DNA of 64,000 bases from an uncultured Gammaproteobacteria bacterium (lineage in GTDB: Bacteria > Patescibacteriota > Patescibacteriia > S139-126): the NCBI GenBank assembly GCA_964620905.1, contig CAZUKA010000001.1, positions 90,890-154,889 on the forward strand. The letters are read 5' to 3'. Shown piece by piece: positions 4,640 to 14,731 of the stretch. The notes below the pieces were generated by a model, which saw only the letters and a program-made list of their open reading frames with translations, did no database searches and had not been told where the DNA came from. The stretch's first letter is position 1. The number at the start of each line of letters is the position of its first letter. A program made the translations under genes and the position numbers.

Positions 4640-7498
4640 ATGAAAAAAAGCTCGACCAAAAAAATAAAACCAGCGGTTAAATTGGTAGTCAAAAATACAA
4701 AGACAACAAAAAAAGTAAAGGCCAACCAAATACCGTCGAGACGAAAAGCAAAAATTTCCCGCCGTCAGTCAGGCACTAGACGGTTACTTAAAAATACTGG
4801 TTTTTTAGTTAAATCCAAACCAACCAAAGTAAAAAAAGTTTTGTCAAAATTATCTCGTTTAGAAGCTGATAGTTTGGCTTTATTTAATGATGATCATGTA
4901 ACCGTTTTTAAAGATTTACAAAAAAATAATTTTGACCAAAAACTAAAATTAGATTCAGCTGCAGATATTGTTAAATCTACCAGCAGTACAACCGAGATAG
5001 CTGGACAAAATGAGTTGATTGTTGATACACAACCAAATGAAATAGGAGCCAAAATTTTATCTGTGCGTCAGCCAGCTCAAAAAATTTCTTCTCCCCACGT
5101 GGTTGATTTAAAGACCAGAGTAGTTTATGAGGACAATAATTATCAGACCGTTGCTCCTCTGACCGCTGCTACTTGGGAAGAAAGAATTTACGCTTGGGAT
5201 AAGAAAATGCAAAATATCAAAACTAACTTTATTACTTCAGATTTGCGTCAACAACAGATTTATAAATCAAATCAAAATAAAAAAGTTGGTTTCTTTTCTA
5301 GGATGATTCGGCGTTTTAGTGGTTGGTTGAGTGCCGGATATTTTTCAATGGTTAATTCTTTTTCCAACTGGGGGGAGACCCAAACAGAAAAAATTTTACA
5401 AACTGCCGCCACTGCTGATACTGATGATTTTGTTGATCAAGTACGACCAGTAAAAAAACGTTTATCACTTTGGCCGCAGGAGCTAGCCGTATCAATGCGT
5501 CTATTTATCATTTTGGCAGTTATTTTAGTTTTACCTTTTCAAGTTTATAATTTTTATTCTGATGTAAAGACACAACAGGAAATGGTTTTGGGAGCTTCTT
5601 CAACAGTTTATAATGATTTTCAGGCAGGTTTCCAAGCCTTTGAAAATTTAGATTTCAGCCAAGCCAGTGATCGGTTTATATCAGCTCAACTTAACTTGCG
5701 CCAAGTTAACGATTGGGTGCAAAAATATCCTTCGTTTTTGTTTATGCTTGCCAAATTTATACCAGGTGCTGGGGGTGAGGTATCAAGTGGTTTAAATTTG
5801 ATGGCCGCGGGTGACAAGATGGCTCAATTGGGAGTGATGCTATCTGATTTATTTACTGATTTACAAGCCAATAGTGGTGATAATTTAGCTGCGCTACAAT
5901 CATTGGAGTCAGGCTTAAATCAAGCAGCGGTTATAATGCAAGAGATTGAACTGATTTTACAAAAAATTGATTTAACTAAATTGCCAGCCAATTATCAGGA
6001 ACAATTTAGTCAATTGAATGAGATTTTACCTATTGCCCGGCAGGTTTTACAGAATGCTAGCTTAGCCAGTGGTTTTAGTGCTGACTTTTTGGGTCGAGAA
6101 CAACCCATGCGTTATTTGTTGGTTTTTCAGAATAGTAATGAATTGAGACCAACAGGAGGTTTTATAGGTTCAATTGCTGAGGTAGATATTAAAGATGCCC
6201 GAGTGCAAAATTTTTATTTACCTCCCGGAGGTGTTTATGATTTACAAGGTAATCTAGAAGTTTTGTTAGCTGCGCCTGAACCGTTGCGTTTATTGAATGC
6301 CAACTGGCAGTTGCAGGATGCCAATTGGTTTTTTGACTGGCCCACTTCAGCAAAAAAAATTATGTGGTTTTACGAAAAGTCGGGTGGTCCGACAGTAGAT
6401 GGAGTAATAGCAGTCAACTCGCAGCTCTTACCAAAGTTATTGCAACTTACTGGTCCAATATATTTAGCGGAGTTTGATCAAATTTTAACGGCTGAGAACG
6501 TTATAGACCAGTTGCAGTATGAGGTAGAAATAAACTATGACCGGTCATTAAACCAACCCAAAAAAATAATTTCCCAACTCATGCCGATTTTACTTGATCG
6601 TTTACAAAAATTGCCGCCGACTGATTTTTTCAGTTTGTTTTCAGTTGTACATAATTCTTTGCAAGCCAAAGAAATTCAATTGTATCATACCAATAGTATG
6701 TTGCAGAAAAAAATTGATACTTTTGGTTTTGCTGGTCAAATTCAACCCACAAATAGAGACTATCTAGCTGTTGTTGATACCAATATCGGTGGTGGTAAAA
6801 CTGACCAAGTGATCGGCAGTCAAGTCTTACTGACTAGCCAAATCGGTCCGCTAGGGGATGTAGTGAATACTCTAAAAATAATCAAACGTCACGATGGTGA
6901 TCCCACTGATCAATTTACCGGTCAAATGTACCGAGATTATCTTCGGATTTATGTGCCACAAGGTAGTCGTTTGCTTTCGGCTAAAGGTTTTACTCCTCCC
7001 GCTCCAACTGAGTATAATCAACCAGCCTCTGGTTTTCAACGAGATGATTATCTTGCTCAGGTAGAAAATAATGAGCGTTTTGATTTAACAACTGGCACCC
7101 GAATTACCGATGAATATGATAAAACCGTATTCGGCAATTGGCTAACACTTAACCCGGGTGAACTAGTAGAAATTGAAATAGTTTATGCTTTGCCAAAAAA
7201 TATTACTTTTAAAAAACAAAATGATGGTAACTTTATTGTTGGCTTAATTGACCAGTTATTGTCTAAATTGAATTTGTCGTTTAGTGCTGAACGCGAAGTG
7301 GCTATGCATACTTTATTTTTACAAAAACAGTCTGGCCAACCACCTTACAATTTTTCGCAGGAAATTATCTTTCCTAGCTCTTGGGAAGTACAGACCAGTG
7401 AACTACTGAAAAATACTACTGCCCAAAGAGACAATCGAGTGTATTATCAAAACCTGATCAAAGCTGATTCTTTGTGGGGATTAATTTTTATCCGTTGA
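4640..7498 (+). CDS. Large membrane-anchored protein with a lysine-rich N-terminal tail; DUF4012-like (assignment recalled from the 'ELRPTGGFIGS' motif, needs checking)
   Basis: 952 aa. First ~75 aa very K/R-rich. Single TM near aa 285 ('LFIILAVILVLPFQVY'). Conserved block 'LLVFQNSNELRPTGGFIGSIAEVDIKDARVQNFYLPPGGVYDLQGN'. Confidence 0.5.
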   Translation: MKKSSTKKIKPAVKLVVKNTKTTKKVKANQIPSRRKAKISRRQSGTRRLLKNTGFLVKSKPTKVKKVLSKLSRLEADSLALFNDDHVTVFKDLQKNNFDQKLKLDSAADIVKSTSSTTEIAGQNELIVDTQPNEIGAKILSVRQPAQKISSPHVVDLKTRVVYEDNNYQTVAPLTAATWEERIYAWDKKMQNIKTNFITSDLRQQQIYKSNQNKKVGFFSRMIRRFSGWLSAGYFSMVNSFSNWGETQTEKILQTAATADTDDFVDQVRPVKKRLSLWPQELAVSMRLFIILAVILVLPFQVYNFYSDVKTQQEMVLGASSTVYNDFQAGFQAFENLDFSQASDRFISAQLNLRQVNDWVQKYPSFLFMLAKFIPGAGGEVSSGLNLMAAGDKMAQLGVMLSDLFTDLQANSGDNLAALQSLESGLNQAAVIMQEIELILQKIDLTKLPANYQEQFSQLNEILPIARQVLQNASLASGFSADFLGREQPMRYLLVFQNSNELRPTGGFIGSIAEVDIKDARVQNFYLPPGGVYDLQGNLEVLLAAPEPLRLLNANWQLQDANWFFDWPTSAKKIMWFYEKSGGPTVDGVIAVNSQLLPKLLQLTGPIYLAEFDQILTAENVIDQLQYEVEINYDRSLNQPKKIISQLMPILLDRLQKLPPTDFFSLFSVVHNSLQAKEIQLYHTNSMLQKKIDTFGFAGQIQPTNRDYLAVVDTNIGGGKTDQVIGSQVLLTSQIGPLGDVVNTLKIIKRHDGDPTDQFTGQMYRDYLRIYVPQGSRLLSAKGFTPPAPTEYNQPASGFQRDDYLAQVENNERFDLTTGTRITDEYDKTVFGNWLTLNPGELVEIEIVYALPKNITFKKQNDGNFIVGLIDQLLSKLNLSFSAEREVAMHTLFLQKQSGQPPYNFSQEIIFPSSWEVQTSELLKNTTAQRDNRVYYQNLIKADSLWGLIFIR

Positions 7499-7556
7499 TT
7501 GAGATTTATTTTATTTTTTAATTTAGCTAATATTAGCCAAATTTTTTAATTGGGTA

Positions 7557-7585
7557 TTGACAAAAATTTTTTTTGGGTGTATAAT
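7557..7585 (+). promoter_or_regulatory. Consensus sigma70-type promoter (TTGACA-17 nt-TATAAT)
   Basis: ttgaca at 7557-7562, 17-nt spacer, tataat at 7580-7585. Lies in a 1-kb ORF-free region. Confidence 0.55.
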
Positions 7586-7591
7586 GATTTA

Positions 7592-7658
7592 TTAATAAAT
7601 TGGAGAGAGAAAATAAGTGGATTTTATATCTCTCCAAGTTCAAGGGAGAGTTTTTTAA
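7592..7658 (+). ncRNA. Candidate small RNA or transcription-attenuator leader: two mutually exclusive hairpins, the second followed by a U-tract
   Basis: Stem tggagaga (7601-7608) / tctctcca (7629-7636). Alternative stem ctctcc (7631-7636) / ggagag (7646-7651) followed by tttttt (7652-7657). Both use the tctctcc strand. Confidence 0.35.
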
Positions 7659-8116
7659 AAATTAAAGGAAGCATGAATTAGGAGGGAAAATTTGGTACTT
7701 ACCAAGTTTATGAGTAAATTTCGTTAGCCCTTTATCCGGTATTCATACTGGGTACGTGCTAAGGAATTTATTCGTTTGACATCCCGCGAGAGCGGGATCA
7801 CTCAAACATTTCCCTCGGAATTTATGTTTTCTTTGTTGGGAGCGGTTATTTGGGGAGAGAGTGACTTGCTCGGCACAAAATATTTTTTTCTGGCCGTCTG
7901 CAGGCTCGCTCCCAAATAACTTTTCCCAAATATTCTTTTCAGTTCTGGGCGTGAATATGCTTTTGCATAGCTCATGCCTTGAACTGAGGAGAATAGCCAG
8001 GTACAATACAATAAAACCAATAAAATCCTGGCAAAAAATTTAAAATAAAATACTGATGACGAATGCGGCGCCCAAATTTTTAGTCAAATTAAATGACTAC
8101 AAAGCTGACATTCGCC

Positions 8117-8229
8117 CTCAGTAATCTGGGTGCTTGGTTCGAGGCTAGTCGGTTGTCCCGCATTTGCGGGAAAATCTCTCTCCTCACAGCCGACCATGCA
8201 ATTCTAGAACCAAGCCCCAGATTAGTGAG
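8117..8229 (+). repeat. 113-nt imperfect palindrome (about 22-bp closing stem) enclosing nested hairpins and a CU-rich single strand
   Basis: Left arm ctcagtaatctgggtgcttggttc (8117-8140) vs reverse complement of gaaccaagccccagattagtgag (8207-8229): one mismatch and one bulge. Inner hairpin tcccgc-attt-gcggga (8156-8171). 'ctctctcctca' at 8177-8187. Confidence 0.5.
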
Positions 8230-8261
8230 TAATTTATATAACTTAAATTTAAGGAGTAAAG

Positions 8262-8414
8262 TTGGAATCATTAAATAGACCCGGAAGATTTTTTTATATA
8301 CTTTTTATTTCAACTATTGCTGTTATAATTTGGGGTTATCCCATTTTAATTTTGATTTTATTATTACTTACAGATGCTAAAGAAGTAAAAAGAAGTAAAA
8401 AAATTAAAAAATAA
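8262..8414 (+). CDS. Putative 51-aa single-TM membrane peptide (TTG start)
   Basis: RBS aaggag (8251-8256) 5 nt before TTG. Translation 'MESLNRPGRFFYILFISTIAVIIWGYPILILILLLLTDAKEVKRSKKIKK*'. Intrinsic terminator immediately downstream. Absent from the ORF track, which lists ATG starts of 60 aa or more. Confidence 0.3.
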   Translation: MESLNRPGRFFYILFISTIAVIIWGYPILILILLLLTDAKEVKRSKKIKK

Positions 8415-8424
8415 ATGATTTATA

Positions 8425-8451
8425 AAACTACTTGAAAAAGTAGTTTTTTTA
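8425..8451 (+). terminator. Rho-independent terminator
   Basis: aaactactt-gaaa-aagtagttt followed by tttt. Confidence 0.6.
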
Positions 8452-8491
8452 TCTTTAAAACTTTTAATTTTTATGTTAAAATATTTACATA

Positions 8492-10090
8492 ATGCTAGAA
8501 AAAATTTGGTTTAAATTGAATAATACCACAACCGGCGGGGCAATCTTGATTGCCTTTTTTTCTGTATTTGCCAAAATTATTGGATTATTTAGAGATCGAT
8601 TATTGGCCGCAAATTTTTCAGGAAGTAATATTGATATTTTGGATGTGTATTATGCCGCGTTTAAATTGCCGGATTTAGTTTTTAATACTTTGGTATTGGG
8701 AGCACTGGCTTCTGCTTTTATTCCCGTGTTTGTAAAATATTTACAAAAAAATAAGGACGAGGCCAACCAAATTGCCAATTCACTTCTCAATTTATTATTG
8801 CTGGTTGTGGGTGTATTGACAGTGGTATTTATAGTTTTTGCTCCTTGGTTTACTCATCTAGTTGTACCGGGTTTTAGTGGTGATAAATTTGAGCTAACCG
8901 TCAGATTTACTCGAATTATGTTTTTGGCTATTTTATTTTTTACGGTTTCCAATGTTCTCTCGGGAATTTTAAATTCTTATAAAAAGTTTTTATCTTTTTC
9001 TTTAGGGCCAATTTTTTATAATTTTGGAATTATTCTGGGTATTTTATTTTTTACTAAATTTCTGGGCCCAGAGGGTCTGGCGTGGGGTGTGGTTTTTGGT
9101 GCTTTGCTGCATTTATTGATTCAGTTGCCAGAAACATTTACAACGGGTTGGCGTTATCGATTTGATTTTTTCTTTAAACATCAAGCGGTGAGACGCATAA
9201 TCACTCTGATGATACCAAGAACATTTGGTTTGGCGGTGGCACAAGTCAATCAAGTAGTAACGGTGATCATTGCTTCTACTTTAACCGCTGGATCAGTCGC
9301 ATATTTTAATTTGGCCAATAATTTACAGTCTTTCCCGATTTCTGTTTTTGGTGTGTCAATTGCTATCGCCTGTTTTCCTGCCTTTTCCCAAGCTTTTGCT
9401 GAAAAAAATCAAGAAAAATTTATGGTCAGTTTTAGTGTCAATTTCAGGCGTATTTTGTACTTGATTGTGCCTTTTTCAGTTTTTCTACTTTTACTGCGAG
9501 CACAAATTGTGCGGTTGGTTTTGGGAACCGGCAATTTTACCTGGACTGATACTATCCAAACCGCCCAAACTCTGGGTTTTTTTTCCTTGTCTTTATTTGC
9601 CCAAAGTTTAATCCCACTTTTATCCAGATCCTTTTATGCTTTTGAAGATACCAAGACGCCGGTGATAGTTAGTATATTTTCTTTTTTAGTAAATATTATC
9701 GGAGCAATTGTTTTGGGACAAAAGTTTGGTATTTTTGGCGTGGCCGTAGCTTTTTCTCTTGCCTCGATTTTAAATTTTATAGCCTTACTTACTATTTTAA
9801 GGTTTAAAGTAGGTTATTTGGATGATAAAAAACTGGCTTGGTCTGCCTTGCAAATAAGTTTTTTAAGTTTACTTTGCGGTTTATTGGGTTATCTGGTGAT
9901 GCATGTCGTTGCGCCACTGGTAAATATGCGTACTTTTTGGGGAATTTTTATTCAAACTATTAGCACCTTGTTTATTGGTGGCGGGGCTTATATAATACTG
10001 TCAGTTTTATTTAGATTTGAAGAAGTTGAGATTATTGGTAAATTTTTTGGAAGATATTTGAAGATTTTTCAGAAGAATAATGGCAACTAA
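8492..10090 (+). CDS. murJ: Lipid II flippase MurJ (MviN)
   Basis: N-terminus 'GGAILIAFFSVFAKIIGLFRDRLLAANFSGSNIDILDVYYAAFKLPDLVFNTLVLGALASAFIPVF' is characteristic of MviN/MurJ. About 14 TM segments. Confidence 0.85.
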   Translation: MLEKIWFKLNNTTTGGAILIAFFSVFAKIIGLFRDRLLAANFSGSNIDILDVYYAAFKLPDLVFNTLVLGALASAFIPVFVKYLQKNKDEANQIANSLLNLLLLVVGVLTVVFIVFAPWFTHLVVPGFSGDKFELTVRFTRIMFLAILFFTVSNVLSGILNSYKKFLSFSLGPIFYNFGIILGILFFTKFLGPEGLAWGVVFGALLHLLIQLPETFTTGWRYRFDFFFKHQAVRRIITLMIPRTFGLAVAQVNQVVTVIIASTLTAGSVAYFNLANNLQSFPISVFGVSIAIACFPAFSQAFAEKNQEKFMVSFSVNFRRILYLIVPFSVFLLLLRAQIVRLVLGTGNFTWTDTIQTAQTLGFFSLSLFAQSLIPLLSRSFYAFEDTKTPVIVSIFSFLVNIIGAIVLGQKFGIFGVAVAFSLASILNFIALLTILRFKVGYLDDKKLAWSALQISFLSLLCGLLGYLVMHVVAPLVNMRTFWGIFIQTISTLFIGGGAYIILSVLFRFEEVEIIGKFFGRYLKIFQKNNGN

Positions 10091-10094
10091 GAAA

Positions 10095-10160
10095 TTAACT
10101 AATAACTAATAACTAATTACTAATGACTAATGAATTTATTAATTAGTTATTAGTAGATTG
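10095..10160 (+). repeat. Low-complexity tandem and inverted 'ACTAAT' hexamer repeats downstream of murJ
   Basis: taactaataactaataactaattactaatgactaatg, then its inverse attagttattagtag. Confidence 0.4.
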
Positions 10161-10262
10161 TGTCATTGATTAGTAATTAATAATTATAGATTATTATACA
10201 TATTGACCACTTGTTTAAACCCGAGTCAGCAGCGAGGCAAGAGTTAAAAATTATTATTTTTT

Positions 10263-12041
10263 ATGGATAGTAAACAAATTCGCAATTTTTGTATCATCGC
10301 CCATATTGACCATGGTAAATCAACTTTGGCTGATCGGTTGTTGGAAATTACCCACACGGTTGATAAAAGAAAAATGAAAGATCAACTTCTTGATCAAATG
10401 GATTTGGAAAGAGAGCGCGGAATTACTATCAAACTAACACCAGTTAGAATGCAGTGGCAGGGAGTAGAGCTTAATCTGATCGATACGCCGGGGCATGTTG
10501 ATTTTGCGTATGAAGTTTCTCGCAGTTTAGCGGCTGTGGAAGGGGCGTTATTGTTGGTTGATGCTACTCAAGGAATTGAAGCTCAAACTTTAGCAAATTT
10601 ATATTTGGCACAAAAACAAAATTTAGTGGTAATCCCAATAATCAATAAAATTGATTTACCAGCGGCGGATGTAAATACAGTTACGGAAGATTTAGTTAAA
10701 TTGTTAAAATGTTCTACCACCGATATTTTGTTGGCTTCAGGTAAAACTGGACAAGGGGTAGAGGGTATATTGAATACAATTATTGAACGGATCCCGCCGC
10801 CCCAGGGACAGGTTGATCTACCTACTCAAGCTTTAGTGTTTGATTCTTTTTATGATGAATATCGAGGAGTGGTGTCCTATGTCAGGTTGAAAAATGGTCA
10901 AATAAACAACAACGATAAAATAAAATTTCTTTCCAATCGCACTTTAACCGAAGCGCTGGAGGTTGGTTGTTTTTCTCCAACTATGACTAAGTTAGATAAA
11001 CTTTCAGCAGGCGAAATTGGTTATATAGTAACTGGTTTAAAACAAGTGGGTGAAGCTAAAATTGGCGATACCATAACCAACCACCTAAGTAGCCAAATCA
11101 CAGCGCTAGCTGGTTATGAAGAAATGAAACCAATGGTATATGCTGGTATTTATCCCAAAGAAGGTGATGCTTTTGCTGAGTTGCGCGAAGCGATGGAAAA
11201 ATTAAAATTAAACGACGCGGCTTTACTCTATGAACCAGAATCATCTTTAGCTTTGGGTTTTGGTTTTCGGTGTGGTTTTTTGGGGTTGTTGCATTTGGAG
11301 ATATTTAAAGAACGAATTAGACGAGAATATGAACTAGAAATAATAGTTACTACACCATCGGTGGCTTATCAAATAGTAGACAAAAAAGGTCAGAGTAAAA
11401 TTATTCATTCCCCAGAAGAATTTCCTTCGCAAGAAAAGCTGGAAAAAGTTTTTGAACCGATTATGCGGGTAGAAGTTTTAACACCTAAACAGTATGTCGG
11501 CAATGTAATGAAATTGGCCAGTGATAAGCGCGGTCAATATGTTGATACGACTTATTTGGATGAACAGAAGGCCATTTTGCATTATTTTTTACCACTTACC
11601 TCGCTGTTGGTTGATTTTTATGATACACTAAAAAGTATCAGTAGTGGTTATGCTAGTTTAAGCTATGATTTTTTTGATTATCAAGTCTGTGAATTGGTTA
11701 AACTTGATATTTTAGTAGCCGAAGAAAAGGTTGAGGCTTTATCGACCTTAGTCTATGAGGATCAAGCTTATCAGATAGCTAGACAAATTGTTAAGTCATT
11801 GAAAGAAGTTTTGCCTCGGCAGATGTTTGAGGTAAAAATCCAGGCTACGATTGGCGGTAAAGTGATTGCCAGCGAAAGATTGTCAGCACTGAGAAAAGAT
11901 GTCACAGCCAAACTTTATGGTGGTGATGTAACAAGAAAAAGGAAGTTATTGGAAAAACAGAAAAAAGGTAAAAAGAAAATGCAGCGCCGTGGTCGAGTAG
12001 AAATTCCCTCCGAAGCCTTTATTGCTTTATTGAAAAGATGA
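10263..12041 (+). CDS. lepA: Elongation factor 4 (LepA)
   Basis: 'IRNFCIIAHIDHGKSTLADRLLE', 'DTPGHVDF', 'NKIDL' G-motifs, and the LepA-specific C-terminus. Confidence 0.95.
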   Translation: MDSKQIRNFCIIAHIDHGKSTLADRLLEITHTVDKRKMKDQLLDQMDLERERGITIKLTPVRMQWQGVELNLIDTPGHVDFAYEVSRSLAAVEGALLLVDATQGIEAQTLANLYLAQKQNLVVIPIINKIDLPAADVNTVTEDLVKLLKCSTTDILLASGKTGQGVEGILNTIIERIPPPQGQVDLPTQALVFDSFYDEYRGVVSYVRLKNGQINNNDKIKFLSNRTLTEALEVGCFSPTMTKLDKLSAGEIGYIVTGLKQVGEAKIGDTITNHLSSQITALAGYEEMKPMVYAGIYPKEGDAFAELREAMEKLKLNDAALLYEPESSLALGFGFRCGFLGLLHLEIFKERIRREYELEIIVTTPSVAYQIVDKKGQSKIIHSPEEFPSQEKLEKVFEPIMRVEVLTPKQYVGNVMKLASDKRGQYVDTTYLDEQKAILHYFLPLTSLLVDFYDTLKSISSGYASLSYDFFDYQVCELVKLDILVAEEKVEALSTLVYEDQAYQIARQIVKSLKEVLPRQMFEVKIQATIGGKVIASERLSALRKDVTAKLYGGDVTRKRKLLEKQKKGKKKMQRRGRVEIPSEAFIALLKR

Positions 12042-14540: not shown

Positions 14541-14616
<76 letters not shown>

Positions 14617-14657
14617 CAAGCAAAATGCAGAATTTAGGATTAAGAATAAAAATAATT

Positions 14658-14731
14658 TGGAGCGGGATACCGGAATCGAACCGGCGCTCTATCCTTGGGA
14701 AGGACATGTACTACCACTATACTAATCCCGC
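14658..14731 (-). tRNA. tRNA-Gly (anticodon CCC)
   Basis: Reverse complement: acceptor gcgggat/atcccgc, anticodon arm tgtcc-ttCCCaa-ggata, T-arm gccgg-ttcgatt-ccggt, CCA encoded. Confidence 0.8.

Follow-up and report, generated by a model that had tools for sequence, protein, structure and literature searches.

To our knowledge, densely structured and conserved bacterial non-coding RNAs of at least 400-600 nucleotides (nt) are rare, and the few large classes that we know of (rRNA, RNase P, transfer-messenger RNA (tmRNA), group I/II introns, OLE, ROOL, GOLLD and HEARO/omega RNA) are each catalytic, form ribonucleoproteins (RNPs) or self-assemble. Here we describe a structured RNA of ~640 nt that is encoded on the + strand of a 64,000-nt stretch of a Patescibacteria contig (positions 90,890 to 154,889 of CAZUKA010000001.1; hereafter, the window). 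The interval that holds it, between the gene of a 952-amino-acid (aa) DUF4012 protein (4640-7498) and murJ (8492-10090), measures 993 nt, and the part at ~7592-8232 is a conserved, structured, non-coding RNA gene. We class the RNA as a new, previously undescribed family because it matches no Rfam model and because literature searches on structured or large non-coding RNAs of the candidate phyla radiation (CPR) or of Patescibacteria returned no description of it; the classification was tested against the Rfam 15 models and with a covariance-model search covering the collected sequences.

Among described systems, the large ornate RNAs OLE, ROOL and GOLLD come nearest in character. OLE is reported to form a membrane-associated RNP (PMC12265935, PMC9723947). 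OLE and our RNA share a size of ~600 nt, many stems with invariant nucleotides between them and a stand-alone position in a conserved, operon-like gene block, and the neighbours of the RNA described here are likewise membrane or envelope genes (MurJ, DUF4012), with a small hydrophobic open reading frame (ORF) downstream in some lineages. In contrast to OLE, however, our RNA occurs in Patescibacteria and not in Bacillota, and it gives no match to the Rfam OLE model even at E ≤ 10. Whereas OLE has the membrane-protein gene oapA directly downstream, the small ORF found here is present in 4 of 11 lineages, is unconserved and matches no family; none of the partners OapA, OapB and OapC was identified, no homology search for OapA having been made. 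The ROOL and GOLLD RNAs are also large (≥ 500 nt) multi-hairpin bacterial RNAs, and together with OLE they have been seen by cryo-electron microscopy (cryo-EM) to form RNA-only homo-oligomers via intermolecular contacts (PMC12286853). Our RNA differs from ROOL and GOLLD in occupying a fixed chromosomal site in a housekeeping gene block, in lacking any association with tRNA clusters and any Rfam match, and in leaving phage, plasmid and viral collections empty. With 6S RNA it shares a strong promoter of constitutive type, its own terminator and a long irregular hairpin (the 3′ hairpin) with a conserved asymmetric internal loop, but it is three to four times larger, matches no 6S model, and only one side of its internal loop is single-stranded, the other side carrying a hairpin. 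Finally, the EAR element is the processive-antitermination RNA of Bacillales eps operons. As in an EAR-type leader, a structured RNA lies here inside a glycosyltransferase/flippase cluster, co-oriented with the downstream genes and with terminators after it; unlike such a leader, it is five times larger, has a consensus promoter of its own and no Rfam match, and at locus L062 stands alone and convergent with murJ. In close and distant members, a predicted promoter of its own also precedes murJ.

The structured character of the RNA is apparent from its folding. Over 7590-8260 the + strand reaches -266.8 kcal/mol, compared with -166.8 ± 6.0 in dinucleotide shuffles (z = -16.6), while the minus strand gives z = -9.0, and the many G-U pairs contribute to the advantage of the + strand; three distant members of the family likewise fold well below their shuffles (z = -9.4, -7.7 and -14.5). 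The initial annotation had noted an enrichment in G+C, and this is borne out: 7660-8250 has 40.6% G+C, above both the window mean of 34.2% and the 95th percentile of 590-nt windows (39.5%), and is flanked on both sides by AT-rich spacers of 18%. Conservation starts at the promoter and ends sharply at 8232. A protein-coding gene or pseudogene was considered and rejected: the longest open frames vary in strand, frame and position among homologues so that no reading frame is conserved, gap runs in the homologue alignments have lengths divisible by 3 in merely 0-5 of 13-25 cases, substitutions among the RNA homologues show no codon periodicity, and the mini-ORFs downstream have no Pfam match. Mechanical listing of the gap yields eight ORFs of ≥40 aa in place of the three short ones first reported, none of them conserved. 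The RNA is present in one copy in the window and has the following parts.

7592-8232, + strand: structured non-coding RNA, ~640 nt, backed by folding z-scores, limits of conservation, covariation and the lack of a conserved ORF
7601-7636, + strand: H1, 5′-terminal hairpin, stem UGGAGAGA / UCUCUCCA with a variable loop
7664-7835, + strand: 5′ multibranch domain with a 25-bp closing stem (GGAGGG...CCCUC) and three arms (7690-7707, 7712-7773, 7774-7807)
7837-7928, + strand: H3, long hairpin in which the invariant GA-rich strand GGGGAGAGAGU (7852-7862) faces the invariant CUCGCUCCC (7905-7913)
7931-7995, + strand: H4, 28-bp G-U-rich hairpin with core GGGCGUGA...UCAUGCC
7996-8057, + strand: H5 (GCCAGG...CCUGGC, 7996-8032) and an A-rich linker (8033-8057)
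8058-8116, + strand: H6 (helix 16), stem GACGAAUGCGGC / GCUGACAUUCGCC around a variable hairpin (8081-8099)
8117-8229, + strand: H7, 113-nt 3′ hairpin with a 25-pair basal stem
8141-8147 / 8195-8206, 8148-8155 / 8187-8194 and 8156-8171, + strand: internal-loop region, inner stem and small hairpin of H7
8172-8186, + strand: asymmetric internal loop AAAAUCUCUCUCCUC of H7, unpaired, the most conserved element of the family

All the individual hairpins listed in the initial annotation recur in this anatomy within 0-4 nt (7692, 7782, 7836/7907, 7956, 7996/8027, 8081 and 8156, with the CU run at 8176), as does the closing stem 8117-8140 / 8207-8229, which has 23-24 bp and is imperfect. Of the extent first proposed, 7660-8250, the structured character holds and the start does not, the unit beginning ~70 nt earlier, at ~7592 after the promoter, with the hairpin 7601-7636. 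The 113-nt feature at its end had been read as a palindrome; as DNA it is no palindrome, and as RNA it forms a long irregular hairpin whose internal loops are conserved and which favours the + strand, scoring 150.8 bits on that strand and 32.3 bits on the minus strand with its covariance model. H1 varies or is absent in distant members (L062, L072) and is therefore probably a 5′ protective hairpin, and H5 is restricted to the clade of the window, being absent in L059 and L062. The 5′ domain, conversely, is recognisable by alignment in all 11 members. The inner hairpin of H6 differs in sequence and length among genomes and is always kept as a hairpin, the G-U pairs of H4 favour the + strand, and the loop at 8172-8186 is predicted to be unpaired in every member and is invariant in 11 of 11. 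The sequence CUGAUGA...CUGA at 8053-8108 was considered as a kink-turn or box C/D motif and discarded on inspection, as its flanks pair in the wrong topology.

Importantly, the secondary structure is upheld by compensatory substitutions. The number of consensus pairs changed on both sides rises from 17 of 207 in an alignment of 4 sequences to 55 of 174 with 8 sequences and 73 of 191 with 10, where 92.1% of cells are paired. Column shuffles of the 10-sequence alignment yield 29.7 ± 3.9 covarying pairs, with none of 500 shuffles equally high, and moving the partners by 1-3 columns leaves 10-22 covarying pairs and 36-50% of cells paired. Both-side changes affect 24 of 66 pairs in the 5′ multibranch domain (helices 2-8; 10-sequence alignment) and 10 of 28 in H4 (helices 14-15; helix 15 by itself, 8 of 26). 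In the 3′ hairpin, followed across 11 lineages, 23 of 42 pairs are changed on both sides and 90.8% are paired, compared with 30-47% in slid controls. A further helix suggested by the covariation scan, UACUGA (8051-8056) with UCAGUA (8118-8123), fails in L059 and L062 and was rejected, the basal stem of H7 being supported instead. The 3′ hairpin is also under tighter constraint than the housekeeping genes next to it: in genomes that share 78-82% identity with the window in the coding sequences of murJ and lepA, identity reaches 97-98% in the 3′ domain (8104-8232), and it is 80-82% over the RNA as a whole and 64-66% in the DUF4012 gene.

Homologues are found in at least 11 lineages of one Patescibacteria (CPR) clade, all beside murJ and with MurJ identities of 57-99%; the hunt for them was anchored on murJ and supplemented by one metagenome and two viral-contig scans with DNA patterns. 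The MurJ-anchored searches assign the window to a metagenome-assembled Patescibacteria genome; the nearest named record is ‘Candidatus Paceibacter sp.’, and farther ones are labelled Komeilibacteria or Parcubacteria. The gene block GT4 - DUF4012 - murJ - lepA is syntenic across the group, and the RNA ranges from ~390 nt (L072) to ~670 nt. The loci, designated by L numbers, are placed as follows.

L001/L056, L002, L003/L069-70, L066-68: MurJ 86-89% identical to the window; RNA between DUF4012 and murJ, + strand
L057/58: MurJ 80%; RNA between DUF4012 and murJ, + strand
L059: MurJ 72%; RNA between DUF4012 and murJ, + strand
L062-64: MurJ 68%; RNA downstream of murJ, on the opposite strand
L072/73, L083/84, L085: MurJ 57%; RNA in the DUF4012-murJ interval, + strand

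It was a covariance model built on the 3′ hairpin that revealed the three most distant members, with scores of 30-41 bits and E values of 1e-7 to 1e-10. At loci with MurJ identity of 56% or less (L004-L017, L086), DUF4012 abuts murJ or no covariance-model match is obtained with filters off; L060, L061, L065 and L071 are too short for a decision or lack the RNA next to murJ. The signature AA[AT]CTCTCTCCTC occurs exactly once in each RNA-bearing locus and never in the related loci without the RNA. The metagenome pattern, CTCTCTCCTCA-N8-CATGCAATTC, recovered one locus, murJ-adjacent and near-identical to L001; its J2 part is too specific, distant members differing there. An inverted repeat upstream of murJ in L014 was examined as a candidate homologue and set aside, since it scores 27 bits on both strands and is an unrelated GC-rich repeat without the signature loop. 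This near-perfect repeat (GTCATCCCGGCGCAGGCCGGGATCC...GGATCCCGGCCTGCGCCGGGATGAC, L014:5913-6003) lies just upstream of murJ in a Patescibacteria genome farther removed from the window, and a similar element recurs at 9486-9579. At two loci, publicly annotated genes overlap the RNA, a ‘30-aa product’ spanning 406 nt at L059:4333-4738 and a 50-aa minus-strand ORF that crosses the 3′ hairpin at L084:7811-7963, and both are probably spurious consequences of the unannotated RNA.

Two elements are universally invariant, and no others: the CU loop of the 3′ hairpin, AAAAWCUCUCUCCUC, and the GA-rich strand, GGGGAGAGAG or GGAGGGAGAGAG. The two are complementary over 10-12 bp in every member (-16 to -21 kcal/mol), and both core motifs are unique to the RNA within 64 kb, the GA-rich GGGGAGAGAG occurring a single time. 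The GA-rich strand comes immediately after the GGAGGG closing stem in short members and lies in H3 in the clade of the window, and L085 has it in both positions.

The RNA appears to form its own transcription unit, with these predicted signals around it.

7526-7537, no strand: perfect 12-bp palindrome GCTAATATTAGC, operator-like, 19 nt upstream of the -35 box
7557-7585, + strand: sigma-70 promoter TTGACA-17-TATAAT, 12/12 match to the consensus, predicted transcription start ~7592
8251-8414, + strand: AAGGAG ribosome-binding site (8251-8256) and 50-codon ORF (TTG 8262 to TAA 8414) for a small hydrophobic peptide
8424-8450, + strand: weak AT-rich terminator-like hairpin (AAAACUAC-N8-GUAGUUUU) followed by a U run, read from sequence
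8454-8482, + strand: promoter-like site, extended -10 (TGTTAAAAT), ~10 nt ahead of the murJ start codon (8492)

The promoter arrangement of TTGACA, a 16-17 nt spacer and TATAAT or TATACT is kept in all seven homologues examined and is visible also in L072 and L085; the -10 box of L083 is less clear (GATATAT). The palindrome GCTAAWWTTAGC, which at 7526-7537 has its sole exact match in the window, is found 19-20 nt from the -35 box in close homologues, L059 and L083 and farther upstream in L085, a conservation that suggests binding of a dimeric regulator. At the other end, a hairpin with T-run terminator directly follows the RNA in L001, L003 and L059, a bidirectional terminator lies between the RNA and murJ in L062-L064, and in L072, L083 and L085 the base of H7 runs into a U-tract. 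As no terminator intervenes between RNA and mini-ORF in the window, joint transcription of the two is probable, and the hairpin at 8424-8450 is the likely end of the transcript in this genome; our terminator scan, which demands 3 G-C pairs, did not report that hairpin. The mini-ORF (50-68 codons, hydrophobic, preceded by an AGGAG site and followed by a terminator) is found in 4 of 11 lineages, namely the window, L002, L066 and L057/58, and is absent from L001, L003/L069, L059, L062, L072, L083 and L085; the peptides of the four lineages could not be convincingly aligned and match no Pfam family. The -10 region on the murJ side is conserved in close homologues, and TGnTAWAAT stands between RNA and murJ also in L083 and L085. 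The presence of an extended -10 element there suggests that murJ is a separate transcription unit. In 8454-8491 and its equivalents in L001-L003, just ~10 nt separate the end of the extended -10 (TGTTAAAAT) from the ATG of murJ, and a Shine-Dalgarno sequence is missing, such that the murJ mRNA of the window clade may be leaderless or near-leaderless; in L083 and L085 the -10 element lies ~50 nt upstream of murJ.

The explanation that we favour, and that we hold on balance to be probable, is an undescribed large structured RNA gene whose product acts in trans, with a GA·CU core and palindrome-controlled expression. The RNA would work as a scaffold, of RNA or of RNP type, and not as a leader. 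Its active core would be the invariant complementary pair formed by the single-stranded CU loop and the GA-rich strand. If the two strands paired within one molecule, a long-range pseudoknot would lock the 5′ and central domains onto the 3′ hairpin; pairing between molecules would instead give rise to dimers or oligomers, and by analogy with ROOL and GOLLD the invariant, self-complementary GA/CU pair could mediate self-association of this kind. The symmetry of GAGAGAG and CUCUCUC would also permit a pyrimidine-motif triplex with a locally paired GA strand, and both elements may form a protein-binding surface. Control of expression would probably run through the conserved palindrome ahead of the promoter. 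We would guess, in short, at a scaffold RNA that GA·CU pairing, intra- or intermolecular, holds in order.

The strongest argument for action in trans comes from three independent assemblies, L062, L063 and L064, in which the RNA and murJ converge and no gene follows the RNA, which therefore cannot be a leader there, while the promoter, GA strand and CU loop are all retained. The restriction of the mini-ORF to 4 of 11 lineages, taken together with this convergent lineage, favours a stand-alone trans-acting RNA over a leader, and the separate murJ promoter and the patchy, unconserved mini-ORF argue in the same direction.

Several observations weigh against the proposed scaffold. Folds computed without pseudoknots already place the GA strand in local pairs, a scan for extra helices or pseudoknots supported by covariation gave none that was convincing, and GA·CU pairing lies beyond a covariation test because both strands are invariant; that invariance may equally be explained by protein binding. 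Promoter, transcript ends and action in trans are each predicted from sequence. The constant murJ neighbourhood is largely an ascertainment effect of the murJ-centred search, and further copies may exist elsewhere in these genomes or outside the clade. Ten of the 11 lineages, moreover, have murJ or a small ORF downstream of the RNA and in the same orientation, an arrangement that fits a leader too.

This last point is the core of the best-surviving rival, a serious one although we consider it rather unlikely: a giant cis-acting leader or attenuator, in which the RNA and a terminator govern read-through into the mini-ORF and/or murJ-lepA, either as a riboswitch-like sensor or by processive antitermination as known from polysaccharide operons. 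The placement ahead of murJ persists over MurJ identities of 57-99% and even where genes have been inserted nearby, but nearly all genes of the region lie on one strand, so co-orientation weighs little, and sister lineages run from DUF4012 to murJ without any RNA. A leader for the downstream mini-ORF had already been suggested in the initial annotation, and that suggestion survives at best to the extent that no terminator intervenes between the RNA and the AGGAG site and small ORF in the window, L002, L066 and L057; it falters on the other seven lineages, which lack the ORF and terminate directly after the RNA, and on the unalignable sequence of the ORF where it is present. The terminator-like U-run at the end of the 3′ hairpin of L072, L083 and L085 would suit an attenuator, and the GA strand with two alternative CU-rich partners could form a switch. 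Against this stand the separate extended -10 promoter of murJ in close and distant members, the convergent orientation in L062-L064 and the lack of a match to any Rfam riboswitch or leader model.

Much less probable is an mRNA of the type I toxin-antitoxin-like or small-membrane-protein kind, whose structured 5′ part would control the translation or stability of the hydrophobic mini-ORF. Type I toxin mRNAs have structured 5′ untranslated regions (UTRs), and four lineages carry a strongly hydrophobic ORF of 50-68 codons with a good ribosome-binding site directly after the RNA; however, seven lineages carry the RNA without the ORF, conservation is strongest in the RNA and not in the ORF, the peptides are unalignable and match no family, and hydrophobic ORFs arise readily in AT-rich spacers. 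At 640 nt the structured part would, moreover, far exceed any such UTR known to us.

Slightly lower still do we rate a highly diverged member of a known family (RNase P RNA, tmRNA, signal recognition particle (SRP) RNA, 6S RNA, OLE, ROOL, GOLLD, a group I/II intron or an IscB/TnpB guide RNA). Size and ornateness are within the range of RNase P, OLE and ROOL, and CPR lineages are often divergent. Yet cmscan with the 4227 Rfam 15 models at gathering threshold detects only three tRNAs in the window and only tRNAs in ten homologous loci, with RNase P, tmRNA, SRP, 6S, OLE, ROOL, GOLLD, HEARO, raiA, introns, riboswitches and leaders among the families left unmatched. At E ≤ 10, searches of 7400-8600, L059 and L062 give sub-threshold hits, mostly to unrelated hairpins of the microRNA-precursor type, which differ among these three divergent members and almost never recur. 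ARAGORN finds three tRNAs and no tmRNA in the window, and no transposase, reverse transcriptase or nuclease gene is adjacent. The early view that the RNA stands outside the common housekeeping families thus accords with the negative Rfam and ARAGORN searches and with the extensive covariation.

An RNA borne by a mobile element or phage was also rejected: its neighbours are GT4, DUF4012, MurJ and LepA, the 64 kb hold it once, phage and plasmid collections returned nothing in blastn searches, and a first pattern scan of viral contigs gave 0 matches, while a looser 17-mer scan gave 9, a number that we estimate to be compatible with chance, none with a covariance-model score. The least probable of the explanations, and one already hard to sustain, that of non-functional sequence (decaying intergenic DNA, a pseudogene, or a relic of palindromic repeats or a mobile element), can draw on the presence of the RNA in some lineages and its absence from the same DUF4012-murJ junction in sisters, and on the different position and orientation at L062 with repeat elements beside the RNA, but it is countered by conservation above that of the adjacent coding genes, compensatory substitutions in 73 pairs, a retained consensus promoter, a single copy per locus and in the window, phage, plasmid and viral collections without a match, the lack of a reading frame or codon periodicity and, as regards recent transfer of one element, by identical flanks and target-site duplications not being seen.

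Returning to a trans-acting RNA as the preferred reading, we note that the genomes of CPR bacteria are tiny and leave hardly any DNA to spare. This, together with the size of the RNA, its consensus promoter and a 3′ domain conserved above its housekeeping neighbours, makes it very likely that the RNA does something important for these uncultured, episymbiotic organisms. More tentatively, and as a proposition that may or may not hold, it could be the first large ornate RNA class specific to CPR (390-670 nt), under tighter constraint than LepA, with GA/CU contacts that are long-range or intermolecular and possibly triplex-capable, and with a possible envelope-linked or catalytic function in hosts of minimal genome. 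Eleven diverged sequences and a well-supported secondary structure suffice for a covariance model, a CPR-wide survey, chemical probing and cryo-EM, and the strictly invariant GA and CU elements constitute a directly testable hypothesis.

Some minor features of the surrounding DNA deserve mention. At L062:4700-5100, an element of ~130 nt with the motifs AAGAGATCCCTCGACTTC...GGGATGACAT...CTTGTCATTCCGACCGAG occurs three times in tandem-like fashion, between lepA and the gene of the RNA, and looks like a miniature inverted-repeat transposable element or repeat family. A DDE_3 transposase fragment and an HTH_23 gene are found at L085:12171-12656, a few kb downstream of lepA and away from the RNA. 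In L083, an NCBI metagenome-assembled genome, lepA is split into two ORFs of 364 and 195 aa (9673-11556), whereas the near-identical ENA contig L084 has an intact gene of 589 aa (9673-11442), so that the split reflects either a frameshift or an assembly error. In the window itself there is a strong strand bias, every ORF of ≥150 aa in positions 1-42700 being on the + strand; on the minus strand of that part we noted nothing but two tRNA genes, for Thr and Gly, at 14541-14731.

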